From Blasia pusilla (taxonomy: Eukaryota), in assembly GCA_050084515.1 (NCBI GenBank), contig CM114271.1, positions 23,746,001-23,810,000 on the forward strand: a stretch of DNA of 64,000 nucleotides. Reading direction: 5' to 3'. The notes below the pieces were generated by a model. The model was given only the letters and a program-made list of their open reading frames with translations, searched no databases and was not told the DNA's origin. Positions within the stretch are counted from its first letter, which is position 1, and each line of letters begins with the position of its first letter. A program made the translations under genes and the position numbers. This document shows positions 6,701 through 56,805 of the stretch, in pieces.

Positions 6701-6889
6701 GCAAAAACAGCGAGTGACCATCGAACTCCCCCATGAAGCTATCTCATTCTCGCATTTTTTCTTTCTCTTATTCTCTCATTCTAAAGACTACGTGTCTCGT
6801 TGGTACTTTGTGTCTCGTTGTAAGAATGCCATGAGTTAGCATGGGATCGTGGGTGTTTGTGTGTGTATTCGGTGATAGCGATGTGGACA
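3737..6889 (+). mobile_element. Non-autonomous, internally rearranged derivative of the DNMT-PHD Gypsy family: block A 3737-4254, leader to 5825, inverted leader copy 5823-6782, block-B-like end 6800-6889
   Basis: 3737-5825 aligns by eye with 33663-35655. 6800-6889 resembles 42984-43108. Starts TGTC and ends GACA. No TSD seen. Confidence 0.8.
4260..6782. repeat. Long inverted repeat, arms ~4260-5198 and ~5823-6782, spacer ~620 bp
   Basis: The reverse complement of 5823-6782 matches 4260-5198. The same peptides (e.g. GLPQRSLILGL, FFAFAD.SCGRVAHGS) appear on opposite strands in the ORF track. Confidence 0.9.
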
Positions 6890-31420: not shown

Positions 31421-33662
31421 GCTCAGTGATTTGAAGATGTTTACAAGCCCAACTTACAACCACTACCAAAGATGATCTTTGCTACTTGTGTTCTTCATAA
31501 TATTATAATAGACATGGATGATCCTATTGTTGATAATCTCATAGATCACCATCCTCGGGAGGGATGCATGGTGCATAAGGTCGTAACCTTCCTCCAAACA
31601 ATGAAGCAATACATGATGGGAGGAGAAATTGCGATATGATTCCTCTTTTTGATCATGTCATGGGTGCAATTCCATAGTAATTTCAATATTTCAATAATAT
31701 ATGATTGCATAAGTGCACCATAGTTTGTCACTTGTCTCATTATGAATTCTTCTTGAATGTAAGAGCTAACAATCTTCCTTCAAAACTTCTCCCAATGACT
31801 AGAGATCATTGTGAAAGCATCTCCATTGTGTTGTAGGACTTGTAATTCCAATTTCCTTTGGTAACAATCCTCTTTGTATCCACGATCTATAACATCAATT
31901 ATGGAATGAGTGGATTATTGCATAGCTTGGCCCAAAGAGCTCCTTCTTTGATGTTTACCTCTAATCCCAACACCAAGGCTCCTCTTTTTCAAATTTCCCT
32001 CTTTAGTTATAGAGGCCTTTCACGTGTTGGAATATGCATTACTATGTACACAAGACGACAAAATTCATTATTTGAATTGCAAACATCCCATTATTGTGAA
32101 AAACATTGGAAATACATAAACACATGAAAGGAAAAAACAAAGGTATTATAAGCACCTTGAATAGGAGGAAAGGATGGTGGTGGAGTGATTGGAGGCGCAT
32201 TGGTAGGCATCCCTTCTGGAGCCATTGGGGTCTCAAATAGCTCTTCCTCTATATTAACAAATAATGAATTAGTAACATCCCATATATTCATCATATGTAA
32301 TGTTAAGCAACAAAGAAACATTAGCATTCATATTGATGTATCTGGAGTCACAGGAGAATGTATGATAGTGATGGGTGGAGTTTCTGTTGTATTTGAAGTT
32401 CCCTCCTTCAATAGGTATCCATAAGTACCTCAAAGGTCATCATTAAGATCAGGAAGGAGAGATGTATCAAAGTTTCATACTCCCATGCTCTGTGGATCCA
32501 CGTCTTGTTGCTTAGGATGCTAGTCTACTAGATCCTTATAAAACATCTCATCAAAGATTGAAGGTAGACCTCGTTCTTTTCGATCCTTTTTTGACATACA
32601 TGTGTCAATAAAAGATAATGCCTCCCTTCCGTTCCTAATCATGAACCTGAAAATTACATAAGTGTTAGATTTACAAAATGAATTAAACCATATGATATTT
32701 AAATTTTTTTTTCCCTATGACCAACTTACTTTTTTGAAGTCTTTGAAGAGAGCACTCCACTTCTTTTTGCATGTATGCCCATGACAAATGGGTTGTGTCA
32801 TTCCTTTGTTGAAACAATAGTCCACCATTTTTTTCCATTTCATTTTTACGCTGGCCATAGTAGATTGAGTTGTGTGATTTCAGTTCTACTACTTCCATCT
32901 CGTGTCGTTTTTCCGCGATCAACATTTTGATCTTCGTAGGCGTTCATGTAATCAACTTGTCCTTTTGTTGTGGTACTTGAGAGTCAAGTATGACACAATC
33001 ATCATCTACAAGACTTGCTTGTTACAATGAGAAAGACACAAAATGAAAATGAGTACTAAAATTTTCAGGAATGAAAAGTAGTGGAAAGGTACAAATATAT
33101 ATTATAATTATAAGAATTTAAAAAATGGACTTGCCCAAGTTTTCATCATGAAAATTAGTACAAAACTTTATTATAATTAAAATGAGTAGCTATAAAACTA
33201 GAGCTTCCCTCTAGGTCTCTCCTCTTTACCTTGCAATTCTCTATTCACAAAAAATTTAAAATAATAAAAATTTCAAGAAGTTCCACTAAGACAAATTATT
33301 CATAATACCTTCTCCATATTGTAAATGTAGTCCTCACTTGGAAAGCCTAAAGTGCAGAAAGGAAATTTGGTGAGGGCAAACCTACACTTGAAGATACCTA
33401 AACGCATCCTTTCAAACACTTGAAGATAAGGGGTGTAAGAGTTCTCTAAAATTGGAAAAGGTGTTTAAAGTACAAATGAAGCATCTGTGAAAGTTGCCCC
33501 AATTGCAATTTGAAGAAGATTCTCTACTTTTGCAAGCAAATGACAAACATGGTTTTCACGTCTTTTAGGATAGATCGGTGAGATCTAATAGAGCGCCTTT
33601 GCAAGTAGTGGAGGACAGACTCAAGAGGTTGATGATGACCTACTGAGGCTCCGAGAAACGTG

Positions 33663-34116
33663 TGTCACGTCCTTTAGGATAGATCGGTGAGATCTAGTGG
33701 AGCGTCTTCAAGAGTAGTGGAGGACAGGCCTAGGAGGTCGAGGATGACCTGTTGAGGCCCTGGGACTCATTTGGGCTCATTTGGAACCATATTGAAGAAC
33801 TTACTATTTTAGGTTATTACCATTTTGAGTATATGATCGACTTCCTATTTTTGGTAAGTGGCCCTTGACCGCCTATATCAGGTCAAGAGCCAAAGAGGTG
33901 ACTTGGAAGAATAAGTTACCATGGAGAGAGCTTGGGAGAGGGGAGGGGTATATATCCCAAGGAGAGAGAGCTTGAGAGCTCATTCTCTCTTTGTTGAATC
34001 TCTTGGCATGAGGCGGCGGAGCTATGGTCCCTTGCCTTGTGAGTGTAACCTAAGCCTCTCATTAGGAGAGCAGATTTGGTTTGACATGAGAGAGAGAAAT
34101 TGGATCTTACTTTACA
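33663..34116 (+). repeat. Terminal repeat block A1
   Basis: Direct repeat of 43111-43628 apart from two small indels. TG...CA ends. Confidence 0.9.
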
Positions 34117-35663
34117 AAGAGAGAATGAGAGAATGAGAGAAAGAGAGAATGCGAGAATGAGAGAGTGAGAGAGCTTCATGGGGGAGCTCGCTGGTCACTT
34201 GCTGTTTTTGCAGGTTGGGGACCGTGTTCCCCGTTCAACGGCTCATGGGAGTGCTCATTGGAGCAAGGGTTGCTTGGATTGTTCTTTGCATTTGCCGATT
34301 TTTCGTGTGGAAGAGTGGCGCGCGGAAGCGCTGCCGAATTTTTGATAAGGATTGAGTATGGGGGCGTGTTGCCCCATGCCGGTGCTTTTGGGAGCACCAT
34401 GTCGCTTACTGATTTGTATTTTTACAGGTTTTACATTTTTGTTGGGAGGAATCAGCGCGGAAGCGTTGCCGAATGTTGGGTAGAAGAAAGAGACATTGGA
34501 CTTTACGACAATCCCTGTCAATTTTTACTGGAATGTTTGATTCCAAATATTTTTTGATACTAGCGTAGATCGTGAAGCTATACACGCTGTGCAACAAACA
34601 ATACACAATTTGGAGTTGCGAGCAAAAAGTTATGGTCAATCTTGCAAAACTTCCATTGCTACACGATTTTTAGGGTTAAATTGTGCAAACCCTAAACCAG
34701 CCGCCACACCGGCGGCGGCCGTCGCCGTCATAGTCATCGTCAACCATCAACGGTCAACTTTCATCGTCGATGGTCAACCATCACCGTCAATGGTCCACCG
34801 TCCGTTGTCCACCCTTGGTTGCCATTGCCGCCGTTACGGAGTGGAGGGTCTTCCACAACGTTCATTGATTCTCGGACTTGCGTCGCTATCACGTACTTTT
34901 TTTGGCCGCCACCGTCATCAACCTGTGATGGCATATGACCTATTGTTATAGTGTTTGAGTTTTGAGTTCCAGCTGCTATGTTTTGATTGGTAGCCGGTCA
35001 ACGACGACCGGGTACTCTGCCGTGACGCCCGTAGCCGCAACGCGCCGCCGATTGCCGCGTCGTGCCGCTCGTGGCCGCACTGCACCGTCTTGATCATGGA
35101 GCCGCTTCCGCATTGTGGAGCTGAGTGTGGGTTTATTGTTGATTGAGGAGGGTATGACGCCGAGTGCCGCATCCCATCATCGAGGGCCGTTCCGTGCCGC
35201 CTGCAACGCCGCACCGTTCCGCTGGAATTGCACCGTCTATCGAGGATTTTTTAGCAACGTCAGTACGGGAGGAGTATGACTTGCTGATTGGAGGAGTTTT
35301 CTCCACGATCGAGTTGGGGTCGAGATTCGTAGTTCCTGAGGAGCGACATCAACATGTGTTCAGGTTACCCATTCTGGTCCTTTACCCTGCACGTGTGAGG
35401 GATTCTGGGATTTGGGTAGTTTATTTGAGGATATTGGATGTGTGGATGCTGAGAGCATCATTTATGTATGTGATTTAGGGGACATAGACTTGTGTGTGAT
35501 GTCCGGAGTTGAGGGTAGGTTGTCGATGAGATGATAGCCTTGTCGATTTGCCGCACCACACCGCTTATTGCCGCACGTTACATGTCTCAGGGAGGGAGAG
35601 TGTAGATTGAGTGCCGCATGTTTGGGATGAGTGATTGAGGGATTACTCGCGAGGCAAGATTGA

Positions 35664-37669
35664 TTGGGTAAGAAGGGCACGAGGTTCATCACGGCGTCCA
35701 TTCAGGACTTTGAGAGGCGAGGTGGTGAACCCGAGAGTAGCTCTAGAGGTTTTACGCGGAGTGGCGTGAGGTTCCGAGGGTCTTCACTTCAGGGACCACC
35801 TCGACCTCCTTCTGTGTCATCGTCAGACAAGGGGGAGGGTGTAGAGGAATTTGTGAGCACATCGCCACACATTGTGAGTGGTCCTACCAGTTGGGCGTAC
35901 GAGATGGACGACCGGGGTAGAGGACCGCATAGGTTTTCAGGTACAGTAGGTACGATTGAGTTGCACGATTTCATGGCAGAGTTTAGGAGTTCGTGCGACT
36001 CCCAACGGGCCCGGAACTATAGAGAGTTCAACCCGTTTACAGCATGGAACGATATGTTCCAGCATTTAGAGGGGGCACCCATGGACGATAACCATGAGTT
36101 TTCCCACACATATGCCTGTGAGATTGAGGCATGGCGACTCTACTACGACCCACACTATGTGTCATGGACGGAGCCGTTCCCAGATGAGGAGGAAGAGTCA
36201 AGAGAGGCTACTTCCTCTTCCACTAGTGATGTTTTAGGAGGGGTCACTCGCACTGGAGCAGTTGCACCGTCTAGTCAGGTTCGTCCTAGGTCAACCCCGT
36301 GGTTGAGTTCTTTGCTGAGTTGAGGGCGAGCTACCAAGGGGTATGGACGGAAATTTTGTGGAGCATCCACAACTTCCAGAGGCGCTCGGGTGAGAGTTTA
36401 CGTGAGGCTTACACTCGATTGCGCCGGTTTCGGGGTGACAGAGGCTATCAGTTAGCATGGTCATGGATGGACCCTCACGGCCACGGGTGCGGAAGGGTGC
36501 TTCTTATGAACACCTCCCCTACGTTGAGAGATGATTTTAGGACCGCCAAGAACATTGAGCGCAACATGGCGGAGGAGAGCGTAGCCACCATGGGTTCTGG
36601 GCGAGAGCAATCGCGATTGGTGCACCACCTATGGAGCAACGTGGACTCCGAGATAGGTCGTGTGGCACCACGAGCTGGGGGAGGATACCGGGAGCCCGGG
36701 CACGGAGACTGCGCCTTCATATGCGGCTCAATAGCAGCCGCCTACTATTACTTGTTGGTCATGTGGTGGAGCCCATCGCCGCCATTGTCGTGGGTCATGG
36801 ACGTATGCCTCAAAGATGGAGGAGGAGATGGTGCCGCACCAAGAGGTTATCGTGTGACTATTGTCGAGGTATGGTCACACGCGCAGGTGTTTGATTTACA
36901 TCCCGAGTTACGTTCGGACCGAGGGCCAGAGAGGGCACCGGAGCGAGTAGCCGGTCCGGATGGGCCTAAAGATCGTGCACCAGGTGGTCACGTTGGGGGA
37001 CGAGGAGCTGGAGTTTCCCGACAGGATGGTGAAGCTGCCCGTGGAGGAGGTAGAGTACTACCACCTAGACACGCCGAGGGAGACGCCAAACGTGAGGATG
37101 GGATGGTTGCTCAGATATAGGAGCAGATTGCTGATATGGGATTGAGGTTATTCGATGCCGGATCCGTGGCATCGACATCATATGGAGCAGCTAGAGATCT
37201 GGAGGATCCTTGTTGGATGTGCGAGGTTGCCCAGATGGAGGCCGCCGCAGTTGTGACGCGTGGAGCAGCCGCAGAGTTGGATCCACAGTGAGGGGAAGCC
37301 AGAAAATAGAGTAGGCTTCCTCAGTCTTTCACGTTGTCCGAAGCGATGAGGACCCCATCGATGGGTCCTCATCAAAGTTCCTTGAGCGTTGGTGATGTTG
37401 TTGGTGTGCAGGCACGGAGGGCAATGGGAGAAGCGAGTGTGATGACTCCTATTGTTGATGCTCATGAGAGACATATGTCGAGCACATTGTTGGGGGCGGC
37501 CACCGTTGTGTACCGCACTCCTTTATTTTCTGCTTCCGATGTTATGACGTTGGGGGGTACGCCCGCCGAGGCTTTTCGGCTGGCCACGTCGCTATGTGAG
37601 CGCGGGGTTGGAGTTCTTGCATCACGTTCAGAGGTGATTGCAGAGAAGGTGATGGACTGCCGCCTTTGA
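35664..37669 (+). pseudogene. gag-like region of the inner Gypsy element
   Basis: RFSG....LHDF..EFR and FQRRSGESLREAYTRLRR; a frameshifted CCHC knuckle (tgtgactattgt...ggtcacac..tgt) at ~36855 that is intact in the relative at ~58100-58170. Confidence 0.7.
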
Positions 37670-37799
37670 GCGGATGCTCGGACCGTCACGCCGTCGAGAA
37701 TCATGGCGGTCATGGTCGCTAGAATGGCGGAGATGCCCGCTAGGCCCGCGATAGAGCGTGTCATGGCTTCTCCTGGTGTTGTGTTGCTGGATAACCAAG

Positions 37800-38150
37800 G
37801 AGAGGTCTTCCAGTTGGTGAGTCCAAGAGGTAGAGCTTTTAGTCCGCAGCGCGTCTTGTTGGATTCAAGAGCGCAACCCTTGATGTTAGGAAAAGCATCA
37901 TTTAGAGGATTGGGCTTGACGAGAGCCGATGTGGAGTGTTGTCCATTCCGGATAAAGACATCCTTGGATGGAGCGAGTAACACACAGTATATCACCCGAC
38001 ATGAGGTCGTGGTGAGGATTCTCCCGGGACATCCTACTGATGAGTCTGTGGTGCGCGCCAAGGCGATACTGATTGATGCAGAGTCCTACGACATCTTGGT
38101 TGGTGGAGCAGTGTTATACCCGATGGGGTTTTCCTTGGATTACTGGGAGG
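37800..38150 (+). pseudogene. Retropepsin-like aspartic protease domain
   Basis: RVLLDSRAQPLML (the catalytic DSG appears as DSR) and C-terminal YDILVG. Confidence 0.75.
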
Positions 38151-38569
38151 AGCCAACATCCTACAGACCAGGATGGCAGTCAAGTGATGGGCACCTTAGC
38201 TCATTACCCGTTCGATTCACTGGTGTAGTGATCGAGCAACGGCCAGGAGAGATGGCGACCTTAGCAGCATTTAGCAGTGCCATCACTTGGCCTAGTGATT
38301 TGATTGAGGGAGATGTCCATGCAAAGGATACTCTCGTTCTTGACATTTCTATTGAGAGGAGTGTTATGGTAGCTGCATCATTCCGTGGAGGAGAGGTGCC
38401 GTTGTGGGACTCGACTGAGGAGCTTCGACGATTGGCAAATGAGCACGTGCAGACCGCATGGAGCGAAGCGTTTGCATCGGAGCGTGACGGGTCTGAGGAA
38501 CCCGAGGTAGCAGGGAGTGCTACAATGACACCCTTGGATACAACACCCATTGTGTGGTGTATCCCGGAG

Positions 38570-39490
38570 GAGGGTATTCGAGTATTAGATCTCTTTGGAG
38601 GGTTTAGCACTGGGTTAGCTGCTGTTTTGCAGGCAAGAGTGCGAGTACAACAGTACATGTATGTGGAGAGTGATGATGTTGCAAGGCGCGTCTCACTACG
38701 ACATGTGGCGCAGTTACGCCTACGTTTTCCCGACTTATTGTCTGGTCAGCAAGACATGGGTTGAGTTCCCTACCGAGGGATATTTCGTTGTTGGGGGCGC
38801 AAGACTTAGAGCGGGTAGGGACCATTGATTTGGTCATTTCCGGTTGGCCATGTCAAGGCCAATCGAGTGCTGGACGAGGTAGCGGGTTGGTCGACACTCG
38901 GTCCAGGTTGTTTTGGGAGATGTTGAGGGTCTTACGACGGTGGCGGGGAGCACCGCCTCGTTCTTGACCTACATTCGGAGAATGTGCCGATCTTAGAGAC
39001 TCAGTCACGGGTGGTGACGAGTGGTCATCATGTGCGTGCGTGGATCGGCCCAGCAGTTGTTCTTGATGCGGCGAGTGTAGGTTCTAGAGCCCATCGCCCC
39101 GCGTCTATGATGGACCAACTTGGTGCCCCATGCGGTGTTGGGCGTATGGGAGAGTGGGCGCCCCTCCCATTTGTTAGTGGATTCCATTCTAGATCCAGTC
39201 GCCGATCACAAACAAGTGAGGCACGATGATCGACCACCGCTGGATCGTGGTCAATGTCAGGTAGGCCGCGAGCGGCCTTGCCCACATTTGTGAGTTTTCC
39301 GCTTCCTACTCATACAAGGAGGTCGGGCCTCGCTTGGTTTGGGATGACCATGTCCATCGGTTGGTGGAGCCCAACGCCGATGAGAGAGAGCCCAGAGTGA
39401 CGGCAAGATCGGTGTTAGAGGCATCACGACGCTATGTCTTGGGTCAGCGATGGACTGAATCGCTTGACATGGATCCTCGGCTTGGGAGTG
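38570..39490 (+). pseudogene. DNMT3-like C5 cytosine DNA methyltransferase domain within pol (frameshifted)
   Basis: Motif I VLDLFGG..TG; II YVE; III DI; IV DLVISGWPCQGQS; V G.GL...RSRLFWE; VI ENV; VIII AHRP; IX-X EPNADERE...LGQ.MD. Confidence 0.9.
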
Positions 39491-39799
39491 GCGAGAGAGC
39501 GTCGTATGAGATCGCGGATCATAGCGGTTGCGTTGGTGAGCCCCATGCCTCATCGAGACAGTGGAGGCGTGGTGGGGCGAGACCCGAGGAGATCTACACA
39601 CCGGGGAGATCGGGAGAGACACCTTGGACTTCTTGGGATGTTTTTGTACGCTGAAGATGATAGCCACAACATCGAGCGTGGTTTTTGCAATCTTTGTATA
39701 TGGAGGAGATCGAGTTTGTAGTTGGTCAGAGAAGAGCAGCCAAGCGTTGTTGTTCGAGACAGGGTTGCACCATTGCAGAGAGTCCTACCGTAGTCACGA

Positions 39800-41230
39800 T
39801 GGAGACTTGAGAGCCGATATGGGCCCTAAGTTGAAAGGAGGAGAGCGGCGCGGATACATTAGTTCCTCACGAGTTATAGGAGCTGCTTTCTATTTAGCAT
39901 GGAGGATTTGGGTACGCTAAAGGGACCGGGGGTCCGCATTGAGTTGTCGAGTGATACGCCGATCTTCCGACGACCCTACAGGTACAGTGATATTGAGAGG
40001 GGTGTGATTCAGAGTAGGAGCCAGGACTTGGGTGAGCGGGACTAGTGGAGATGTCCCATGGGGAGTATCTCCATTTCATGCCCGCCGAGAAGGACGTGCA
40101 TGGCAACTGGACGGATAGGCGGATGTGTGGGGATTACCAACCTATCAATCGACAGACGAAGTCCAATAGGTATGGCATGCCTACCCCTGAGGAGATCTTT
40201 GATGCAATTGGTCATGCAAAGGTCTTCAGTTCATTGGATTTGCGAGCCGGATACCATCAACGCCTATCAGATTGGAGGACAAGCGTAAGACGGCATTTTG
40301 GGGCATCGATCCTCACGGGAAGGATTGTTTGTACTAGTGGCGGTTCTTACCATTTGGGTTAAAAAATGCCCCGGCTGAGTTTCAAAGGGTCATGGATAGG
40401 ATCTTGGTTGGTCTGGATTTTGCTAGGTGTTATATTGATGATATCATAGTCTTTAGCGCCACGGTTGAGGAGCATGAGCGATAGCTAGAGGAGGTGTTTC
40501 GACGATCGCAATTACATGGGCTGAAGCTACATCCAGGCAAGTGCAAGTTCTTCTATGACCAAATTGAGTACTTGGGTCATACGATATACCCCAAGGGGCC
40601 TTGGTGTTCAACAAACGAAGGTAGAGGCTATCTCACGCATTCCATGCCCTACACATGTGAGCCAGGTTCGCGCATTCATGGGATTGGTGAACTTCTATCG
40701 GCGATATGTCAAGGGATTCAGTTTGATTGCGAAGCCACTGACCTTGCTGACCAAGGTGGATCATGAGTGGCACTGGGGGGATAAGCAGGAGCAAGCATTT
40801 TAGTTGACGTCTGCGCCCATCTTGAGGAGACCGATCAGGGGGCGTCCTTTCTAGTTGCACACAGATTGGAGCATGTTGGGCCTTGGATCAGTGCTCACCC
40901 AGCATGATGATGAGGAAAGAGAGTTCGTGGTGGCTTACACTAGCCGCTCAAACAACGCTGTAGTACACCTCGTATGAGGGTGAGTGCTTGGCTGCGGTGT
41001 GGGCTGTCGCGTATTTCAAGTGTTACTTATTCGGCAACCCCTTTACCATCATCACTGATCATCAACCACTGAATTGGTTGATGGAGTCCGACAAGCTTAC
41101 TAGAAAGCTTGCGAGATGGGCTCTGTTGTTGCAGGAATATGATTTTCAGGTGGTACATAAACGTGGGACGCTCAACCAAGATGCAGATGGGTTGAGTTGT
41201 AACCCATGCCCGAGTCAGCGAGATGCGACT
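39800..41230 (+). pseudogene. Gypsy reverse transcriptase and RNase H
   Basis: [66 protein letters not shown]. Confidence 0.93.
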
Positions 41231-41539
41231 TGAGCTCGATGGCATGGAGAGAGTGATGAGGAGTCGGTGTCGAATTCGGCCCTATTTAGGCATGTTGGCG
41301 ATGGCGAGGTCTAATGGAGAGTCCTGGATCCCGAGGCGGTGAGAAGACGACAGTGGCCGAGATATTCATGATGATGGAGAAGTCTTGGAGTACCTTCGAT
41401 CTTGGCAGGTGCAGCACTGTGGGTGCTAGAGAGCGAGATCGATCCTCTGACCGGGAGGCGGTTCCGTTGGGAGGGGACACATGTTTTGAGGGTTTGGGAG
41501 GATGGCAGAGTACGCGAGGCCGATCCTTTGCAGAGAGCA

Positions 41540-42794
41540 CGACTAGTGCAAAGATGCCCACGAGGAGTTGGGTCACTTTGGGATGAAGCGAACGCATGCC
41601 TTGCTCCAGATTCGATATTGGTGGCAAGGTATGCAGATCGGCGTTCAACGCTTTGTTGCTAGGTGCATGGTGTGTGATTGCGTCCGAGCATCGTTCAATG
41701 CTCGACTCCGATTGCATCCATTACCGATCATGGGCTTAGGGTATAGATGGAGTTTGGATTTTGCAAGACCTTTACCTTTGACAGAGCGTCAGAGTCGTTA
41801 TGTGTTGGTGATGGTCGAGCACTTCTCGAAGTGGATCGAGTTGGTTGCATTGCGTGACAAAGCAAGTGAGGGAGTAGCTTATGCCTTCGTTGACAGAGTG
41901 CTAAGTCATTATGGCGCACCGGCTGAGGTGTTGTCAGACCAGGGTGCCGAGTTTTGGGGTGAGTTCCAAGCCTTTTGTGATCAAGCGCTGATCGACCACC
42001 GCATGACTTCGCAAGATCATCCCGAGGCGGATGGATTAGCAGAGAGTGTTGTGTAGACGGTGAAGAGGGGTTTACGCAAGTATGGCTTACAGAGAGGTCA
42101 CCTACGAGATTGGGACCTCCTGTTGCCATGGTTGGCGATGGGATACAGATTCAGCAAGCAGACATCCTTAGCGTCTTTTTCACCGTACTTGCTACTTTAT
42201 GGCCAAGAGCGAGATTCACCAGCGGCCATTCGTCGAGATGCTGGTGAGGTGCTGGACCTTGATGACCCAGATGTATGGGTGCGAGCATGTTCTCAGAGGG
42301 CTGAGTTATTTCAGAGAGTGATGCCCATGGCGTTCGAGAACTTGGCGATTGTGCAACATCGGGATACGTTGAGATATGCGACTATTCGGGGTGGTGGTTA
42401 TCGACCAATTATCCAGAAGTTTCATCAAGGAGATTACGTCTACTTGCAGCAGACGGCACCGACGAGGTTGGATGTGACTGCAGGACGCACTATCCTGAGA
42501 GTGCATGACGTTTTGCCATCCGGTGTTCTTTTGCTAGAGGGACGCGATGGTATGGTATGGAAGAACCATGTGCGTAATTGTGCACCATATCACCTTCCTA
42601 ACATTGATAGTACATTGGATCCGAGCTTAGCAGTAGTTCCTGCAGGCTTGCGTTGTATGTTGTGTGGTTATGTCCGTGGTGCGGCCACGATGCTAGTCTA
42701 CGATGGTTGTTCGAGAGGTTGGCATATGGCATGTCTGACCCCCCCTCTCACTAGGGTTCCAAGGGGACGATGGATGTGTACCAGATGTACATAG
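41540..42794 (+). pseudogene. DDE integrase with C-terminal PHD finger (42654-42791)
   Basis: HHCC zinc finger (H..LGH...CMVC); WSLDF / LSDQG / GLAE triad; C4HC3 pattern CMLC...(C>Y)DGC...WHMAC...WMCTRC. Confidence 0.92.
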
Positions 42795-42971
42795 AAGAGA
42801 TACTAGGTAGGTTTCGATCCCGACTTTTTCTCTGACATGGATGACAGGAAGGCGAGTAACGATGGGGCCACATGAGCACCAGGCCTTCTTGCTCTTAGCG
42901 TCCGAGAGATGTATGTCATGGTAGGTAGGAATAGATGGCTATCTGGAATTAGAGGGACCTAACCACCAACT

Positions 42972-42982
42972 AGGGGGGGCGA
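42972..42982 (+). other. Polypurine tract
   Basis: agggggggcga lies immediately before block B1. The equivalent aggggggcgg precedes the B-like block of the minus-strand copy (55920-55929). Confidence 0.7.
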
Positions 42983-42983
42983 T

Positions 42984-43108
42984 TGGAGATATTTGGTACT
43001 TCTTGTCTTGTTGTTTGGATGCCATGAGTTAGTATGGGATCGTGCGTGTTTGTGTGTGTGTTCGGTGACAACGATGTATGTTGTGTAGCGATGTGTATAC
43101 GCACGACA
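42984..43108 (+). repeat. Terminal repeat block B1
   Basis: Direct repeat of 43630-43754. TG...CA ends. Confidence 0.9.
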
Positions 43109-43110
43109 GT

Positions 43111-43754
43111 TGTCATGTCCTTTAGGATAGATCGGTGAGATCTAGTAGAGCGTCTTCAAGAGTAGTGGAGGACATGCCTAGGAGGTCGAGGATGACTTGC
43201 TGAGGCCCCGAGAAACCTGAGAGAGCAGGTTTCCCCTTCGTTTTGGCTCATTTGGAGCCATATTGAAGAACTTACTATTTTAGGCTATTACCATTTTGAG
43301 TATATGATCGACTTTCTATTTTTGGTAAGTGGCCCTTGACCTCCTACATCAGGTCAAGAGCCAAAGAGGTGACTTGGAAGAATAGGTTACCATGGAGAGA
43401 GCTTGGGAGAGGGGAGGGGTATATATCCCAAGGAGAGAGAGCTTGAGAGCTCATTCTCTCTTTGTTGAATCTCTTGGCATGAGGCGGCGGACCTATGGTC
43501 CCTTGTCTTGTGAGTGTAACCCAAGCTTCTCATTAGGAGAGTGGGTTTGGTTTGACATGAGAGAGAGTACACACCTTTGAGAGCTATGGTGTGAGATTGT
43601 GTAGAAAGAGTTTGGATCTTACTTTACATTGGAGATATTTGGTACTTCTTGTCTCGTTGTTTGGATACAATGAGTTAGCATGGGATCATGCGTGTTTATG
43701 TGTGTGTTCGGTGACAACGATGTATGTTGTGTAGCGATGTATATGCGCACGACA
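43111..43754 (+). repeat. Terminal blocks A2 (43111-43628) and B2 (43629-43754)
   Basis: A2 repeats 33663-34116 and B2 repeats 42983-43108. Confidence 0.9.
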
Positions 43755-46198
43755 CGTGAGAGAACAGGTTTCCCCTTCGTTTCGGCTCATTTGGAGCCAT
43801 ATTGAAGAACTTACTATTTTAGATAAGTACTATTTTGAGTATATGATCAACTTTATATTTTTGGCAAGTGACCCTTCACCTCCTACATCAGGTCAAGAGC
43901 CAAGGAAGTACTTGGGACCAGGTCATCATGATGAGAGCTTGGGAGAGGGGAGGGGTATACCTCAAGGAGAGAGAGCTTGAGAGCTCAATTCTCTTTTTGT
44001 TGAACCTCTTGGCATGAGGCGGCGGAGCCATGGTCTTGTTTGCCTTGTGTGTGTAACCCAAGTCTCTCATTAGGAGAGTGGGTTTGGTTTGACATTAAGA
44101 GAGACATGTGAGAGTGCACACATGTGAGAACTATGGTGTTGTGAGAGAGATTGGATCTTATTTTACAAAGAGAGAATGAGTGAATGATAAAGCTTCATGG
44201 GGGAGCTCGCTGGTTGCTTGATGTTTGGTGCAGGTTGGGGGACCGTATTCCTCGCTTCATGGCTTATGGGAGTGCTCACCGGAGCAAGAGTCGTGCGAGT
44301 TTGATGTTTTGCTTTGCTGATTTTTTTTGTAGGGGAGAATGACACGCGGAAGCGCTTCCGAATTTTCGATAGGAATTGAGTATGGGGACGGATTGCTCCA
44401 TGCCGGTGCTCTCAAGAGCACCATGTAACTTGCTGATTTGTTTTCTCACACGTTTTATATTTTTTTGGGAGAAATCAGCGCGGAAGCGCTACCAAATTTT
44501 GTGTAGGAGAAAGAGACGTTGGGCTTTACGACCATCCCCATAAGTTCTTACTAGAATGTCCAATTCAAAATATCTTTTGATAGTGTTGTAGATCATGAAG
44601 TTATGCACACTCTACTATAGATAATGCACGATTTGGAGTTGCGAACAAAACGTTACGGTCAATCTTGCAAAATTTCCATTGCTACGTGATTTTTAGGGTT
44701 AAATTGTTCAAACCCTAAATGACCCGCCGCCCCGGCGGCCCGTCGCCGTCAAAGGCACCGTCACCATCAACAATCAACGTTCCACCATCACCATCAATGG
44801 TCAACCATCACCGTCAACGGTTCACCTTCCACCGTCGGCCGCCACCGCCGCCTAGTGTTGCTTAGAGCCGCGTTCGGCCGTTGTCCACCCTTGGTTGCCA
44901 TTACCGCCACTACAGAGTGGAGGGTCTTCCACGATAGCCGTTATTTCTCTAACTTGCGCCGCCACCACGTACTTTGTTTTGGCCCCCACCGTCATTGCAG
45001 TTTCGTCATCAACCAGTGATGGCAGGTGACCTCGGGTTATGGTGTTTGAGTTTTTATTTCATGGTGCTATGTTGTGATTGGTAGCCTCTTGACGATGATC
45101 AAGTACTTTGCCGTAACGCCCATAGCCACAATGCGCCACTGATTGCCGCCTCGTGCCGCTCGTGGCCGCACCGCACTGTCTCGATCGCGGAGCCGCTCCT
45201 TCACTAAGGAGCAGAGTGTGTGAATTGTTGATTGAGGAGGGTATGCCGCTGAGTGCCATATCCCATTCTCCAGTGCCGTGCCGTTTGTAGCCATTCCATG
45301 CCGCCAATGCCGCACCGGACTGTTAGACCTGCACTTCACATCAAGGAGGTTTGAGCAATGTCAGTACGAGAGCAGTTTGACTTGCTGATTGGAGGAGTTA
45401 TCTTCATGACCGAGTTGGGGTCGAGATTTGCAGTTCCCGAGGAGCGACATCAACATCATTTTCAGGTTATCCATTCTAGTCTCTTACCCTGTACGTGTGA
45501 GAGATTTCTGGATATTGGGAAGTTATTTGAGATATTGGGTTTCGTGGTGATTGAGAGCATCGATGATGTATGGGTTTAGGGGACATAGACGTATGTGGGA
45601 TATCCAGAGTTGAGGATGGTTTATCGATGAGACGATAGATCAGTTGATTTGCCGCACCATGGATGATGTAAGGGTTTAGGGGACATAAACTTGTGTGGGA
45701 TGTCTAGAGTTGAGGATGGTTTGTCGATGAGATGATAGATCAGTTGATTTTCTGCACCATACTCCTTGTTGCCACACAACACACATCTCAGTGAGAGAGT
45801 GTAGATTGAGTGTCGCATGTTTAGTTTTAGTGATTGAGGGATTACTTGCGAGATTGAGAGTGATCATGTGAGAGGGGCACGAGGGCCATCACAACGTCCT
45901 TTCAAGATTTTGAGAGGCGAGGTAGTGGACCTGAGAGTAGCTCTAGAGGATTTACTTGGAGTGGTGCGAGGTTTCGAGGGTCTCCACGTGAGAGACTACC
46001 TCGATCATCTTATGTGTCATCTTCAAACAAGAGGAAGCATGTAGAGGAGTGTGTTAGTGATCCACCGTACACATTGAGTGGTCCTACCAGTTGGGCATAC
46101 GAGATGGACGACCGGGTTAGAGGATCGCGTAGGTTTTCGGGTGCTGCAGATACTCTAGAGCTACATGACTTCATTGTGGAGTTTAGGAGTTGGTGTGA

Positions 46199-49100
46199 CT
46201 CACACACATACCACCATGGAGAATAAAATTTGCAATGAGAGATTGAGTGGAGGCTAGTCCTCTTCTCAATTATATAGGGTATGTACAAGAAACCCTAACC
46301 CTACCCTTAACCATAGTCTCGAGCTAGACTAACTTCGATTAACTAACCCTAGTTAAGATAATCGTGCTTAACTAACTAACCAAGATTAAGCTTCCCTACT
46401 TCGTGTGAGTACCAAATATAGCAGTTCACGTGTCTCATAAGCTTGACTCTAATTCAATCTTCAATACTCCCCCTCAAGCTCATATCGATATCTGTAACGC
46501 CTAAATCCTTTCTAAACATCTCAAACTTATCTCTAGACAATGCCTTTGTAAAGATGTCAGCAATTTGTTGATCTGTACATATATACAGAAGATCAATTTC
46601 TCCTACAAGCACTTTCTCTCTGGATAAATGATAGTGCACCTCAACATGCTTTGTACGAGCATGAAACACAGGGTTATTAGCAAGCTTGATGCTACTAACA
46701 TTGTCTGCATATATTACACTAGGTCCTAAGTTACTAACACCAATCTTAACAAAGTAATCGATGAAGCCACACCGTCTCACATGGTGCATTGGTTGCTCAT
46801 CTGCACTCAGCCTCTATTGAAGATAAAGCAAATGTAGGTTGCTTCTTTGAAGCCCAACTTATAGCTTCCCAAAGTAAAGGAATATCCAGATGTGGAATGT
46901 CGATTAGACACACTTCTTGCCCAATCAGCATCTGTGAATTCCTATAATTGAAAACTCGGAGAAGGTTCAAATTGAAGCTCGAATTGAATAGAGAATTTCA
47001 CATACTGCATAATCCTCCTCACAACATCAAGGTGAGATTTTCGAGGTGCTTGCATAAACTGGCTCACTAGGCCAACAACATAGCTCAAATCTGGTTTGGT
47101 TATTGTTAGATAGATCAAACTTCTAACCATGTGTCTTTACATATTAGAATCTGCAAGCAGTTCTCCTTCATCCACTCTTAGCTTCACGCTGTGGTCTAAT
47201 GGTGTAGAGATTGGCTTACAAGCCGTCATACCATATTTTGAAAGCATATGAAGAGCATATTGTTGTTGTAGTAACCACATGCTCTCTCCAACCTTGATAA
47301 ACTCAATACTAAGGAAGTACTCGAGTTCTCCCAAATCCTTCATATAAAATTCTGCTTGTAACTTAAGCTTGACTCATTGTACAATTTCTTCAGTATTCCC
47401 AGTAATCAAGAGATCGTCAACATACAACACAATGAGAATTGTATGATCTTGTCCTCTCGAGACATATAACGAGGAGTTAAAATCATATACCCTAAAACCT
47501 AACTCTTGTAAGATGTATGTAATCTTGCCATACAAGCTCTTGGAGCTTATTTGAGCCCGTATAGAGCTTTCTTCAACTTGTACACGCGAAATGGAAACTT
47601 AGGATGCTCGTATCCAGGTGGTTGAGTCATATATACCTCCTCGTATAGATCTTCATTCAAGAAAGCATTCTTGATGTCCATATGATGTAATCTTCACTTC
47701 TTACATACTACAACTGCAACCACTGTTCTCATAGTCACAATCTTTGCAACAAAGCTAAATGTTTCCTTATAATCAATACCATATTGTTGTGCATAGCCCT
47801 TAGCCATCAATCTCGCTTTGTATGTGTTAATTGTACCATCTTGATTGCGCTTGATTTTATAAACCCATTTGCAACCAATAGATTCATAGATGAATCTATT
47901 AATTGGATATGTATTTCTACTTGATCTACGAAGTTGTTGTTAAGAGGTAGATGCCTCTAACACCTAATTCGAGCTCTGACTAGTGTCAACAGACTGAATA
48001 CGTACTCTTGCCATCCATGGACTCACAGATTTAACTGATGAATCTAGGACCTCTCCTAATCCTGCACTAGTACTTGGGAAAGTTGAAGACAATGTCTGTT
48101 GGTTTATACTCATATTTTTCCCCTCAACAGACAAGTTTAGAGGTGGAATAGGCTACAATGGAGCATACCATAACTTATGCTCATCAAAGGCAACATCCCA
48201 ACTAAAAATACGCTGCCTAGAGGATGGAATGTAGCACTTATACCCCTTAGTTCCATCAACATAGCCAATGAAGATACATCTTTCAGACTTGGGGTCTAAT
48301 TTCTGACGTCTCTCAGAAGGAACAAGAGCATAACAAATACAGCCAAATCCTTTCAAGAAGGAAAAATCAGGTTTACTTCCTGTGAAGACTTCGAATGGAG
48401 TTTTATCATGAACTCTTGCTGTTGGAGTTCGGTTGATTAAGAAGACTGTACATGCTACAACCTTTGCCCAATATACCTTAGGCATGTTCTTCTCATTCAG
48501 CATAGCTCGTGCCGCTTCAATAATATGTCGATTCTTCCTTTCAACCACTCCATTTTGCTGTGGAGTGTAACGGCAAGTCACTTGACGTTGGATGCCATTC
48601 TGACGTAAATAGTCATCAAACTCTATTGAAAGATACTCTCCTCCTCCATCACAACGCAATTTGAGAATGTGTTGTCGAATCTACTTGTCTAGTAGAACTC
48701 TAAATGTTTGGAACACTGAGAATACCTCTGACTTGGCTTTCAGAAAGTATACCCATATATACCTAGAGAAGTCATCAATAAATGAAACAAAGTAGTGAAA
48801 ACCACTAAGGCTATTTTGTGATGCTGTCCACACTTCACCGTGGATCAACTCAAATATCTTGGATGCTCTTCCACCTTGCTTTGGAAAAGGAAATCTAGCT
48901 TGTTTTCCTAATAGGCAAGCAGAACATACCTCTAACGTAGTAGGACTCGCTAATTTAGGGAGTCATATTACTATATTAGATGATGAAAGACTCACTAAAC
49001 TTTGAAGATTCATATGTCCAATTATTTTATGCTACATATTTAGATCTATGACATGTTGGTCGGTTTGATCATACATTGATGTTTGAATCTCTGGCATAGA

Positions 49101-50834
49101 AATGTCTAATTTGAACTTTCTGCCAGATCTAGTTCTTTTGGCTATCGTAGTCTGGTCATCCATTGTTTCAATGAAACAACCATCTGCGTTAAAATTCACT
49201 TGATAACCGTGTTCTACTATTTGTCCTACAGAGATTAGATTTCTTGCAATCGTAGGGACATAAAGAGCATTTCCAAGAGCACAAAGACCATCTGATGTTA
49301 TTGGAACTTTACCGATATGCGTGATATGATGTTGAGTGCCTCTTCATCCATATGCTTGATATCCACCACGACCACAGAAGTTTCTGCCACGACCCCCGCC
49401 TCTGTTTGATCCATAACTTGCAAATAGCGCACTCTCTTGCAGACTAGATGAGCTACCGCTACATACTAGGCGCATCTCTTCACTGATCAATACATGAATT
49501 GACTCTTGAAAGGTTGGATACTTCTTTCTCATAGAGATAGAAGTCTGAAAGGATTTATAATCCTTTGGAAGACCTTAAAGAGTGAAAAAAATCAGATCAT
49601 CTTCTAATTTCACTCCAATGCTATTCAATTGATCAACAATATGACTAATACTCAAAATATAATCATTGATGCCCTATGATCCTTTCCTCACTTCGTTCAA
49701 TTGCTGTTTGAATTGAAGCTTTATGGACTTTGTAGATGTCTGGGAACAGCTTTTCCAATGCATCCCATGTCTCCTTTGGAGTATCAACATCTTGAATGTG
49801 ACCTATTATTGGCGAACTGATCGTTATTCAAATGTAGTGGATTACTTGCCTTGCGCGTTCGTTCCAAGCGCGAACATTCAAGTTTGTTGAGTCACCTTCT
49901 GACTAAGCCTCATCACTTGTGACAAGCTCCCATAATTCTTGACCCATGACAAATTGTTTCATGCAAAACTTCCAGACATTGTAATTCTGTTTGTCTAGCT
50001 TCTCGCTTGTGATTGCTGTTGAGGAATACTCCATGATAAACGATTTCACTCACAAAAACATAATTTCAGGATTTCTACTACTCCAACTGAAGCATAGACC
50101 ACTCCTACACAGAAATCAACCTGAAATTTGCCAAAATTGATCAACTGTATGAAAGAACTAGTTGAAATTGGCTTGTAGAGACCAAACTACACACTAATTG
50201 CACTTTCTTACACTGAAATTGCTATTGCAGGAGCTTAGAGTGTCCGAATCAAGCGATTTTAGGTGCGTTGGAAAGCTCTCAACGAGCTCTACAAGAAGGC
50301 TAGAACCAACTTTTAGCATTGTTCTAGCTGAAGCGGACTCAGACGGCTGAATCGGCCGGGAAAGCCCTAAAAATTGCCTCCAAAGTTTTATCACCGTCAA
50401 AGCTCCACCTGAAATTTGCACCGAATTTCTTCTCCCAATCTGAATTTTTTCCTTCTCTTGCCTCTCTTCTCTTTCCAAACACCAAGAATTTCAAGTGATG
50501 TTCTCCTTCCGCTCTGATATTATGTAGAAAACTGTTACACAAGCATAATTGGTGGTAAACGGCTCTCTCACACATACACCACCATGGAGAACAAAATTTG
50601 AAATGAGAGATTGAGTGGAGGTTGGTCCTCTTCTCAATTCTATAGGGTATGTACAAGAAACCATAATCCTACCCTTAACCATAGTCTCGAGTTAGACTAA
50701 CTGTGATTAACTAATCATAGTTAAGATAATCGTGCTTAACTAACTAACCAAGATTAAGCTTCCCTACTTTGTGTGAGTACCAAATGTAGCAGTTCATAGA
50801 TCTCATGAGCTTGACTGTAACTCAATCTTCAATA
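46199..50834 (-). mobile_element. Degenerate Ty1/Copia LTR retrotransposon; 5' LTR 50523-50834, 3' LTR 46199-46466 (end deleted), PBS remnant 50511-50522
   Basis: Integrase RCDGGGEY...YTPQQNGVVERKNR and SERCIFIGY lies upstream of RT (YKARL.AKGY.Q, VLYVDDLLI) and RNase H (NPVFHARTKHVEVHYH, QIADIFTKAL). PPT GAGGGGGAG. PBS TAATATCAGAGC resembles tRNA-iMet TGGTATCAGAGC. Confidence 0.93.
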
Positions 50835-51864
50835 GTTATGACGTTGGATGGTACGCCCGCCGAGGTTTCCTGGCTGGCCGCTACGCTATCTGAGCGTGGA
50901 GTTGGAGTTCCTACATCATGTTCAGAGGTGATTGTAGAGGAGGTGATGGACATGCCCTTGGAGTTGATGCTTGGGCCATCCACGTCAGATTCATGGCAGG
51001 CTGCAGCTGCTAGGATGACAGAGATGCCCGCTAAACCCGCCATAGAGCGTGCCATGGCTTCTCTAGGCGTTGTTTTGTTGGATAACCGGGGAGAGGTCTT
51101 TTAGTTGGTGAATCCAAGAGGTAGAGCTTTTAGTTTGCACCGCGTCTTGTTGGATTCAAGAGCGCAACCCCTAATGTTGGGGAAAGCGTCATTCAGAGGA
51201 TTGGGCTTGACGATAGCCGATGTGGAGCGTTGTCCATTTCGGATACAGACATCCTTGGGTGGAGCGAGTACCACACAGTATATCACCCGACAAGAGGTTG
51301 TGGTGAGGATTCGCTCGGGACATCCTACAGATGAGTTTGTGGTGCAAGCCAAGACAATAGTGACTGATGTAGAGTCCTACGACGTCTTGGTTGGTAGAGC
51401 AATGTTATACCCAATGGGGTTTTCCCTGGATTACTGAGAGGAGTCAGTGTCCTACAGACTAGAATGGCAGTCAAGTGATGAGAGCCTTAGCTCATTACCC
51501 ATTCGATTCACAGATGTAGTGATCGAGCAACGGCCAGGACAGATGGCGACCTTAGCAATATTTTGCAGTGCCATCACTTGGCCTAGTGATTTGATTGAGG
51601 AACATGTCCATGCAAAGGATACTCTCGTTCTTGACATTTCTAGAGGGGTGTCATGGTATCCGCATCAGTCCATCCATGGAGGAGAGGTGCCACTTTGGGG
51701 CTCGACTGAGGAGCTTCGACGCTTAGCCACTTAGCATGTGCAGAACGCGTAGAGCGAGACGTTTGCACTAGAGTGTGACGGGTCAGAGGAACCCTAGGTA
51801 GGCAAGAGTGCTCTTATGACCCCTTTGGACACCGCCCCGATTGTGTGGTGCATCCCAAAGGAGT

Positions 51865-52760
51865 GTATTCGGGTGTTGGATCTCTTTGGAGGGATCAACA
51901 CTGGATCAACAATGTGGAGATTGATGATGTTGCGAGGCGCGCTTCACTTCACCATGTGATGCATTTATGCTTCCATTTTTCCCACTTGTTGTCTGCGTCC
52001 GCCATTCAGGGTTACCAAAGTTCCCTATCGAGGGACATTTAATTGTTGGGGACGTAGGACTTGGAGCGGGTAGGGACCATAGACTTGGTCATTACTGGTT
52101 GGTCATGTCAAGGCCAGTTGAGTGCTGGATGGGGTAGCGGATTAGTTGACTCTTGGTCTAGGTTGTTTTGGGAGATGTTGCCGATCTTGCGACACTTGCA
52201 AAAGCATCAGTCTCGTCCTCCCGTATACATTCTGGAGAATGTACCGATTTTGAGCGATTCGAGGTGTCGTGTGATGACAAGTGCACATCAAGTGCGCACA
52301 TGGATCAGCCCGGTAGTTTTGTTGGATACGGCGAGTGTGAGTTCACAAGCACATCGCCCACGTCTTTGGTGGAACAACTTGGTACCATACGAGGTGTTGC
52401 CGAGGGCATATGCGAGAGTGGAGCGCCCCTCCAATTTGTTGGTGGATTCTATACTGGATCCGGGCCGTCGATCACACGCAGTGAGGCTAGATGATCGACC
52501 GTCATTGATTGTGGTCAACAGGATTGGCACGCCACGAGCAACCTTTCCCACATTGGTGAGTTTTCCCTCTTCCTATGCATTCAAGGAGGCCGTACCTGGC
52601 TTGGTTTGGGATGACCAAGAACAAAGGTTGGTGGAGCCTAACGCCGATGAGCGAGAGCAAGCGATGGGATTCCCCACAGGAGTGACGGTATTACCGTCAC
52701 TATCATAGGCATCACAACATCATGTCTTGGGTCAGGCGATGGACATGAACTGCTTGACAT
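51865..52760 (+). pseudogene. DNMT3-like methyltransferase domain, second copy
   Basis: VLDLFGGINTG, DLVITGWSCQGQ, YILENVP, SQAHRPRLWWNNL, EPNADEREQAMGFPTGVT, VLGQAMDMNCL. Confidence 0.9.
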
Positions 52761-55700: not shown

Positions 55701-55782
55701 TCAAACAAGAACTTCAATGGAACCTGAACATGGAGATAACTCGACATACAAGAATATGCTACCGTCGTGGCTCTCCAGTATT

Positions 55783-56805
55783 TATCGTGCGCGTATATAT
55801 CGCTACATAGCATACATCGCTGGTAACATCTACACCACACAACACCGATCTTCCCCACACATGGGTCAATCCACACATGTACAAAAATCAACTCATACAT
55901 ATACATGGAGATCACACAACCGCCCCCCTAGCTGGCAGTTGGATCCCCCCCACTCTAGATAGAAAATATCACATCTTTCTGACATGACCTACTACCGTAT
56001 ACACATCTCGGACACATCCATCGTCTCGTGGGAACCACATCAAGAGGGGGGGTTGGACATGACATATGCCACCCTCGAGAACAACCATCACATACCAACA
56101 TGGTGGTTGCATCCCTTGCAGATCCGCACAACATACACCTCAAGCCTGCAGGTACCACTGCCACGCTCGGATCCACCATCCCATCTACGTTCGGAAGATG
56201 AAATGGCGTACAATTTCGCACATGATCCTTCCAAACCATACCATCCCATCCCTCCAACATGAGGACTCTGATCGGTAATACCTCGCGCACACGTAGGATC
56301 GTGCGCCCTGCAGTGACTCTAGCGTCGTGGGTGCCGCCTGCTGTAAATACACGTAATCTCCAAGATGAAACCTCCTAATCCCTGGACGGTAACCTCCTCC
56401 ACGAATGGTCGCGTACCTCAATGTATCTCTATGCTGGGCAATAGATAAGTTCTCAAAGGCTATAGGCATAACTCTACGAGAAATCTCCGCCCTCTGAGAA
56501 CATGCTTGTACCCACACATCTCGATCATCAAGATCTAACACCTCTGCCATGTCACGTCGAATTGCTGGTGGTAAATCTGGCTCTCTCCCAAAGAGCAAAA
56601 AGTACGGTGAAAATGACGCCAAGGATGTCTGCCGACTAAAGCGATAACCCATAGCCAACCATGGCAACTGTAGGTCCCACTCCCTCAATTGTCCCCGGTG
56701 CAAGCCATACTTGCGCAATCCTCTCTTCATCGTATGTTCCACTCTCTTCGCCAACCCATCCGCCTCAGGATGACCTCTGGACGTGGTGCGGTGATCTATC
56801 AGCGC
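55783..56805 (-). mobile_element. 3' fragment of a third, related Gypsy copy: integrase C-terminus, intact PHD finger, PPT, B-like terminus
   Basis: IDHRTTSRGHPEADGLA...; PHD CMLC..CDGC..WHMSC..WMCPRC; PPT at 55920-55929; end ...gcgcacgata at 55783. Confidence 0.88.

Follow-up and report, generated by a model that had tools for sequence, protein, structure and literature searches.

A retroelement family of Blasia pusilla with a DNMT3-like methyltransferase domain between protease and reverse transcriptase and a PHD finger after the integrase

The window analysed here, 64,000 nt of Blasia pusilla DNA (assembly GCA_050084515.1, contig CM114271.1, positions 23,746,001 to 23,810,000 of the forward strand; coordinates below are counted from its first base), contains at least three dead copies of one retroelement family, nested and cut down. 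Copy 1 (10,092 bp, forward strand) is complete yet dead. Comparison by tblastn with open natural relatives places within it, in order, gag, protease (PR), a C5-methyltransferase domain (MT), reverse transcriptase (RT), RNase H (RH), integrase (IN) and a PHD finger, and reveals at least eight frame changes. The coding part, in which gag starts at 35916 and the PHD finger ends at 42788, approximates to the segment 35664–42794 that a preliminary description, made from these letters alone, had presented as a Gypsy retrotransposon with its own DNMT3-like methyltransferase inside pol and a PHD-finger integrase. The domain order of copy 2 is the same by tblastn. The family is very probably one of retroelements with Ty3/Gypsy-type enzymes in which a DNMT3-like cytosine-5 methyltransferase separates protease from RT and the integrase is followed by a PHD finger, and one that belongs to a clade whose named members are bryophytes and is of the same kind as KnitGypsy-Dnmt3 of the alga Klebsormidium nitens. 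All of the window copies are fossils with no function now; that every one is broken had been recognized from the start, and besides the frame changes of copy 1, the 1060 codons in shared frame between copies 1 and 2 include 21 stops.

The methyltransferase lies at the same place in both of the window copies that cover the region, between the protease (active-site motif LLDSRAQP at 37856 and 51147) and RT, with its motifs in canonical order as first described. In copy 1 these are DLFGG (38588), GWPCQG (38842), ENVP (38978) and AHRP (39089), followed by frameshifts, and in copy 2 DLFGG (51879), GWSCQG (52097, with a Pro to Ser change), ENVP (52235), AHRPRLWWNNL (52349), AMGFP (52661) and LGQAM (52727). 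When the unaltered open reading frame (ORF) pieces were searched with Pfam, a check that the preliminary description had proposed for a frameshift-corrected consensus, PF00145 was matched above its cut-off of 22 in both copies, at 38677–38967 in copy 1 (E-value 1.9e-9, 37.8 bits) and at 52058–52708 in copy 2 (a 216-aa ORF; 9.3e-6, 25.7 bits). Other pieces of copy 1 match Integrase_H2C2 and rve (41547–42056) and PHD (42057–42794, 5e-8), those of copy 2 match RVT_1, RT_RNaseH and rve, and an inverted third fragment (55955–56374, minus strand) matches PHD with an E-value of 1e-10; the reported PHD finger after the integrase is thus present in copies 1 and 3. The methyltransferase match is not a chance one, since an exhaustive search with the 216-aa ORF found 793 representative proteins at E-values of 1e-3 or below, 380 at 1e-10 or below and 30 at 1e-30 or below.

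Among enzymes of solved structure, the closest to the family methyltransferase are those of the DNMT3 group. All 29 of the matches to the 216-aa ORF alone were DNMT3A, DNMT3B or DNMT3C (best E-value 3e-4). A profile built from 32 family methyltransferase domains matched human DNMT3A best (5e-25), then DNMT3C (9e-22) and DNMT3B (1e-21), with tobacco DRM (NtDRM, 1.6e-13), Arabidopsis DRM2 (AtDRM2, 9e-10) and M.HhaI (2e-9) farther down, the tRNA enzyme DNMT2 at 5e-5 to 0.39, and no DNMT1, CMT or DNMT5 chain at an E-value of 10 or below. The match to DNMT3A runs through three collinear stretches in unpermuted order, an order that can also be read directly from the window motifs, and the domain is therefore not rearranged in the manner of DRM. 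The AlphaFold model of the Calypogeia methyltransferase domain has a pLDDT of 94.4, and among the Foldseek matches listed for it (33, ranks 1–49) all are DNMT3A, DNMT3B or DNMT3C (E-value 4e-19), with TM up to 0.84 and TMt of 0.79–0.84 for catalytic-domain chains. The earlier suggestion of a DNMT3-like enzyme is borne out to this extent: the family methyltransferase is DNMT3-like by sequence profile and predicted fold. With host DNMT3A, DNMT3B and DNMT3C it shares the motif order I, IV, VI, VIII, IX, X and the PCQ/ECQ, ENV and RxR signatures, but identity is about 23%, the region between motifs VIII and IX is longer (and is conserved and confidently folded in the AlphaFold model), and the domain is embedded in a gag-PR polyprotein without ADD or PWWP, neither of which was found by Pfam in the gag-PR-MT ORFs. 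The homologue searches, including the exhaustive protein search, returned only family members and no canonical DNMT3, DRM, CMT or MET1, and a protein atlas gave only generic PF00145 clusters without taxa.

The preliminary assignment to a land-plant family agrees with the nearest named relatives, which belong to Marchantia, Calypogeia and Sphagnum. Named matches come from Calypogeia fissa (63% identity), Sphagnum fallax, S. jensenii and Closterium, and Marchantia polymorpha has at least 11 gene models of the family, including Mp_8g17980, Mp_4g09160 and Mp_6g11220. The Marchantia copies are near-identical and have open gag-PR-MT ORFs; one of them (P0168) is an open ORF of 1248 aa whose gag matches that of the window. 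The 253 proteins fetched fall into two architectures, PR-MT-RT as in the window (type A, 53 proteins) and RT-RH-MT-IN-PHD (type B, 122 proteins), with 78 too short to type; the type-B proteins with a named host come from the chlorophytes Haematococcus and Hariotina. In a methyltransferase tree of 168 rows the two types are separated by a single change, with all 32 type-A rows in one set (support 98), and an RT-RH tree of 53 rows has the same split (support 100), as expected if the methyltransferase has long travelled with the element. Copy 2 falls in the methyltransferase tree in a 16-row clade (SH-aLRT 100) with nine Marchantia models, Calypogeia and Sphagnum fallax, and Closterium lies in another type-A branch, more distant than the bryophyte rows. 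Further precomputed domains occur in some type-B relatives: P0233 combines Chromo (PF00385) with PHD, and P0103 and P0184 each have G-patch (PF01585). A further set of 80 related loci, 40 of them of 9 kb or more, was found with an alignment of the closer relatives.

The catalytic residues of the methyltransferase are nearly invariant in 139 typed relatives (32 type-A and 107 type-B domains). The motif IV Cys is present in 29/32 type-A domains, the other three having gaps there, and in 107/107 of type B; the Glu of ENV is found in 32/32 and 107/107, the first Arg of RxR in 30/32 and 106/107 and the second in 32/32 and 106/107. These are column counts, used because many type-B members read ECQ and ENT or ENA and are undercounted by simple motif patterns. 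Between copies 1 and 2 the ratio dN/dS (omega) of the methyltransferase is 0.39 (confidence interval 0.24–0.66, from 116 shared-frame codons only). This value, asked for at the outset as a check against passive cargo, is below 1 and similar to those of protease (0.41) and RT (0.34), with RNase H at 0.19 and integrase at 0.26. Median values of omega across 32 related loci are 0.55 (methyltransferase), 0.76 (protease) and 0.37 (gag), all inflated by neutral decay after insertion. As judged from these sequences the methyltransferase is not less constrained than the protease, and near-invariant catalytic residues together with dN/dS below 1 argue that it is not passive cargo. Neither the Pfam search nor the dN/dS comparison, both named in the preliminary description as ways to disprove its reading, disproved it.

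The preliminary description placed the methyltransferase inside pol, and it does lie between protease and RT; in relatives, however, it closes a gag-PR-MT ORF as the final domain, the ORF being terminated by a conserved in-frame stop, and it is therefore not simply embedded in pol. The related locus L028 has a gag-PR-MT ORF of 1369 aa, a TAG and then an RT-RH-IN-PHD ORF of 1047 aa in the same frame, both with the expected Pfam domains. TAG or TAA followed by CAACC ends the methyltransferase ORF in 20 of the 80 loci, with the frame running on into RT; copy 2 retains TAG CAA CCA at 53038, and copy 1 is deleted there. The gag-PR-MT proteins of several lineages also share conserved C-terminal end peptides. 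We read the boundary stop, from its conservation, as a candidate site of programmed readthrough, and its context resembles the UAG-CARYYA signal of plant viruses. P0221, by comparison, is a single ORF of 2358 aa with all of the domains.

A PHD finger is present in L028 and P0221 as well as in the window, and it follows the integrase in 85/87 type-B and 1/3 type-A proteins with enough sequence past the integrase. That of copy 3 and of the relatives keeps all eight C4HC3 zinc ligands, and copy 1 has Tyr at the third. The best matches among solved structures are PHF12, the first PHD fingers of KDM5B and KDM5A, CHD4, PHF21A, DPF3, AIRE, ATXR5 and UHRF1. The finger stands at the far end of the polyprotein from the methyltransferase, in contrast to the N-terminal ADD and PWWP readers of animal DNMT3.

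The Gypsy label stands as regards the enzymes and their order (PR-RT-RH-IN with RVT_1, RT_RNaseH, Integrase_H2C2 and rve) and the TG...CA-type ends of Ty3/Gypsy elements, the unit beginning TGTCA and finishing ACGACA, but it has to be qualified as regards the repeats. Self-comparison gives a layout of split direct repeats, A1...B1-A2-B2, and not two like long terminal repeats (LTRs) at the ends, and six of the 40 related metagenome loci that reach at least 9 kb have the same layout. A 4-bp target duplication flanks five of these seven split-repeat elements (CGTG in the window, CATA in L016, GGTC in L040, CCAA in L050 and TTTT in L069); L042 has no 4-bp duplication, and the flanks of L077 are ambiguous. 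The junction of B1 and A2 consists of the right end, 2 nt (GT, TC or AC) and the left end, both in the window (43109–43110) and in L016, L040, L042 and L050, and looks like a stored copy of the joined termini. B2 of L050 and L069 finishes on the right in a 15-nt terminal duplication (CTACACGTCA[C/G]GACA), which the target duplication follows. Split direct repeats of the type A1...B1-A2-B2 are characteristic of Ngaro/PAT-like elements, which use a tyrosine recombinase; in the window family a DDE integrase takes its place, together with TG...CA ends and target duplications.

The repeats also disclose how the window copies are arranged. A1 and A2 of copy 1 (43111–43567 in A2) are 89.9% identical over 457 aligned nt, and with B1 and B2 93.7% identical the element must be old. 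When the DNA on the two sides of copy 1 is aligned to its A2 it rejoins as one A repeat, and copy 1 is therefore nested in repeat A of copy 2. The two copies reported earlier do carry the methyltransferase at the same place, but they are not side by side, copy 1 having inserted into copy 2. An LTR of 2 kb with tandem copies was considered and rejected, the shared 2 kb being repeat A plus leader. Copy 2 breaks off near 55760, where it adjoins the inverted copy 3.

The kind of element was already published in 2018. As described by de Mendoza et al. (2018, PMC5890265), KnitGypsy-Dnmt3 of Klebsormidium nitens combines domains of Gypsy type with a non-rearranged Dnmt3 that is encoded in the Pol ORF and has Ka/Ks<0.2, and its repeat arrangement is "the same as that of a DIRS retrotransposon". 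The window family resembles that published account in its Gypsy enzymes, a non-rearranged Dnmt3 methyltransferase in the polyprotein, A-coding-B-A-B repeats, purifying selection and a streptophyte host, and differs in that the hosts of the relatives found here are land plants (liverworts and Sphagnum). A PHD finger, the place of the methyltransferase, a stop after it and target duplications go unmentioned in the main text of that paper, and these features may or may not be shared. No Klebsormidium protein was among the 30 that we looked up by name or among the named matches. SymbioDIRS-Dnmt3 of Symbiodinium, as that text presents it, is similar in having a Dnmt3-type methyltransferase borne by a retroelement, split repeats and two domain orders side by side, but it has a tyrosine recombinase whereas the window family has a DDE integrase (rve) and 4-bp target duplications; in yeast its enzyme carries out de novo methylation of CG (PMC5890265). 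REM1 of Chlamydomonas is described as having, like the window family, a PHD finger in its Gypsy-type polyprotein, where it is thought to steer integration (cited in PMC6673714).

The novelty that the preliminary description claimed for land plants appears to hold for the host range and not for the kind of element, since the family in land plants was not found in print. Our literature search returned no description of it in bryophytes, with the figures and supplements of PMC5890265, which lay outside the comparison and may show bryophyte sequences, set aside. The literature search found "Gypsy-DNMT3" in two places alone, the 2018 paper and a 2026 preprint with the wording "streptophytes (Gypsy-DNMT3)". 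According to a 2019 opinion paper, land plants "such as tracheophytes" lack methylase-encoding transposons (PMC6338049). The name Mp8g17980 was not found in the literature, and searches on Chlamyvir, PHD and green algae gave nothing relevant. Three features may be new: the methyltransferase at the end of ORF1 before a conserved stop, the combination of split repeats with target duplications in this family, and the existence of two architectures across green plants, one in named streptophytes and the other in named chlorophytes.

Our best explanation combines the identity given above with a mechanism in active relatives, and we put the probability of the whole at about 0.55; the mechanism taken by itself is tentative, with somewhat less than an even chance of being right. 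One mRNA would encode gag-PR-MT, ending at an in-frame UAG or UAA followed by CAA-CC, and occasional readthrough would add RT-RH-IN-PHD, so that methyltransferase levels would be like those of Gag and the enzyme would accompany the particle. With every catalytic residue of a DNA C5-methyltransferase, it would most likely methylate the element's own cDNA or a fresh insertion; its function in the family is one that we infer. The integrase with its PHD finger would insert DNA with TG...CA ends, producing the 4-bp target duplication, probably into chromatin with unmethylated H3K4, and reverse transcription would use the internal B1-A2 junction (right end, 2 nt, left end) to restore the termini, a role put forward for split-repeat DIRS/Ngaro elements.

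Several points weigh against this explanation. Every copy in the window is dead, and all of the relatives were found through the methyltransferase, so that family members without it would be missed. No stop is present at the boundary between methyltransferase and RT in P0020, P0221, L040 and L050, conservation is what points to readthrough at the others, and a stem predicted about 16 nt past the stop was rejected as a readthrough signal, with a covariation term of -0.03 and most of the stem broken in the window copy. The dN/dS of a decayed copy pair mixes time under selection with neutral time, and in the window pair the methyltransferase has the highest dN (0.23), from few usable codons. That many of the PHD matches read the H3 tail unmethylated at K4 (H3K4me0) is an assumption on our part. 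The Klebsormidium enzyme gave no methylation in yeast, in an assay that its authors, in the main text, call inconclusive (PMC5890265).

The yeast result is one of the reasons to consider that the methyltransferase acts on RNA, placing 5-methylcytosine (m5C) on the genomic RNA of the element or on a primer RNA in the particle and so aiding packaging, stability or priming; the authors themselves raise RNA methylation for a DNMT borne by a LINE (PMC5890265), and the position of the domain upstream of the stop in the gag-PR ORF of relatives means that it would be made and packaged with Gag. We nevertheless think this improbable, since the best sequence and fold matches are the DNA enzymes DNMT3A, DNMT3B and DNMT3C, with the tRNA enzyme DNMT2 far behind, and the VIII–IX region is conserved and confidently folded. 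About equally improbable is action in trans on host chromatin or rival elements, for example silencing competitors or marking neighbours, with the methyltransferase and the PHD finger as a portable pair of writer and reader. The two do occur in one polyprotein in both architectures (the finger in the proportions given above), and the family inserts into its own kind, as copy 1 did within copy 2, but the polyprotein has one towards each end, with the stop between them, and protease cleavage would part them.

A methyltransferase that rides along as passive cargo, or that has lost catalysis and is retained as a DNA-binding module for structural reasons, is suggested by the stops and frameshifts of the window copies and by the SCQ that copy 2 has in place of PCQ. 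The catalytic Cys, ENV and RxR are nonetheless near-invariant in the typed relatives, omega, which is below 1, does not exceed the protease value, and both trees split the architectures with a single change, which makes this reading very improbable. Finally, the arrangement might be an artefact in which a host DNMT3 gene was broken by retroelement insertions, the methyltransferase lying outside the element. Nothing speaks for it beyond the fact that gene models in repeat-rich DNA are in general at risk of being chimeric, and we regard it as already refuted by the same position of the domain in two window copies and dozens of loci, by the open natural ORFs (L028, P0221 and the Marchantia proteins P0168 and P0201) in which it shares the frame of gag-PR, and by the target duplication that encloses the element with the domain in it.

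Plants defend themselves against transposons chiefly by cytosine methylation, and a transposon with its own de novo methyltransferase is for that reason a paradox. The kind has been known since 2018 from an alga that is hard to manipulate and is now represented by many gene models in the model liverwort Marchantia polymorpha, as well as in Calypogeia and Sphagnum; its anatomy (methyltransferase ending the gag-PR ORF, PHD finger, split repeats with 4-bp duplication, two domain orders) yields concrete hypotheses. The boldest view, that these elements are the land-plant branch of a retroelement superfamily found across green plants with a DNMT3 writer and a PHD reader, maybe still active in bryophytes in view of the near-identical, open Marchantia copies, and that their methyltransferase, made at Gag-like levels before a leaky stop, would methylate the element's own DNA, seems to us unlikely in its entirety. 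If it is true, it would bring transposon self-methylation into a genetically tractable land plant, where the question of why a transposon carries a DNMT could be tested directly.

Table 1. Parts of the retroelement copies, and one element nested in them, in the Blasia pusilla window
Feature	Position	Strand	Evidence or remark
A1 and leader of another copy	3737–5825	+	85% identical to 33663–35655
First ~108 nt of A1, copy 2	33555–33662	+	split off by insertion of copy 1; ends in CGTG (33659–33662); resumes at 43755
Copy 1, complete element	33663–43754	+	termini TGTCA...ACGACA; 4-bp target duplication CGTG on both flanks
Repeat A1, copy 1	33663–34116	+	self-comparison
Long leader, copy 1	34117–35915	+	75–85% identity with other copies
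Gag-like region, broken	35916–37600	+	tblastn with Marchantia P0168, residues 8–93 and 146 onward
Aspartic protease region	37700–38220	+	active-site motif LLDSRAQP 37856–37879; DSG in relatives
DNMT3-like C5-methyltransferase domain, copy 1	38534–39577	+	several frames; Pfam, motifs, tblastn
ORF1/ORF2 boundary site, copy 1	39761–39790	+	stop of relatives lost by deletion (comparison with copy 2 and 20 loci)
RT and RNase H	40036–41263	+	frame changes; Pfam, tblastn
Integrase (H2C2 zinc domain and rve core)	41550–42400	+	Pfam, tblastn
PHD finger, copy 1	42654–42788	+	third zinc ligand Cys to Tyr
Polypurine tract	42968–42981	+	directly 5' of B1; same layout in L016, L040, L042, L050, L069
Repeat B1	42982–43108	+	93.7% identical to B2 over 127 nt
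Repeat A2	43111–43627	+	preceded by 2-nt spacer GT (43109–43110)
Repeat B2, right end of copy 1	43628–43754	+	self-comparison, target duplication
Copy 2: remainder of A1, leader, gag start	43755–46198	+	self-comparison, tblastn
Copia-type element nested in copy 2, outside the family	46199–50834		268-nt LTRs; SH3_retrovirus and rve on minus strand
Copy 2: protease, MT, RT, RNase H, partial integrase	50835–55760	+	3'-truncated; self-comparison, Pfam, tblastn
DNMT3-like methyltransferase domain, copy 2	51825–52876	+	51914–52876 single frame with three in-frame stops; motif IV SCQ
In-frame TAG at MT/RT boundary, copy 2	53038–53040	+	followed by CAA CCA
Copy 3, inverted fragment: integrase C-terminus and intact-looking PHD finger (56003–56137)	56003–56811	-	Pfam, tblastn
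Gag fragment, further copy	57233–57719	+	tblastn

The shared-frame stops of copies 1 and 2 mostly pair with CAG, CGA, TGG or CAA in the other copy, and the aligned codons differ by 344 transitions and 147 transversions, a pattern that fits deamination of methylated cytosines; the observed/expected ratio of CpG in the window copies is 0.72–0.90. Both copies read D-S-R (codon AGA) at the protease site (37856–37879 and 51147–51170), and the same motif was matched 20 times in the 80 related loci, 18 times as D-S-G and twice as D-S-S. The change to D-S-R is older than the split of copies 1 and 2, and their lineage may have spread with the altered protease.

Five antisense ORFs (140–207 aa) within the element and two ORFs in the A and leader regions have no Pfam match and are taken as chance; the leader of copy 1 has one ORF of at least 140 aa, with no Pfam match. 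The leader of copy 2 contains a tandem duplication of about 103 nt (89% identical; 45558–45760), and the A1 and leader of the copy at 3737–5825 are followed by an inverted leader piece (5823–6782) and then by a B-like piece (6800–6884). The LTRs of the Copia-type element nested in copy 2 are 91% identical, and its integrase ORF has the retroviral SH3-like and rve domains. G+C skew on the sense strand of the copies is strongly positive (0.13 to 0.23) from 34001 to 46000, with lower or negative values in the neighbouring DNA. Elsewhere in the window there are host-like exons of an AMP-binding enzyme (9832–11079, plus strand, E-value 1.4e-57), a TAXi_N aspartic protease (19145–20059, minus strand, 3.6e-15) and CCDC84 (24054–24644, minus strand, 3e-29), the first two being of plant type and in keeping with DNA from a plant.

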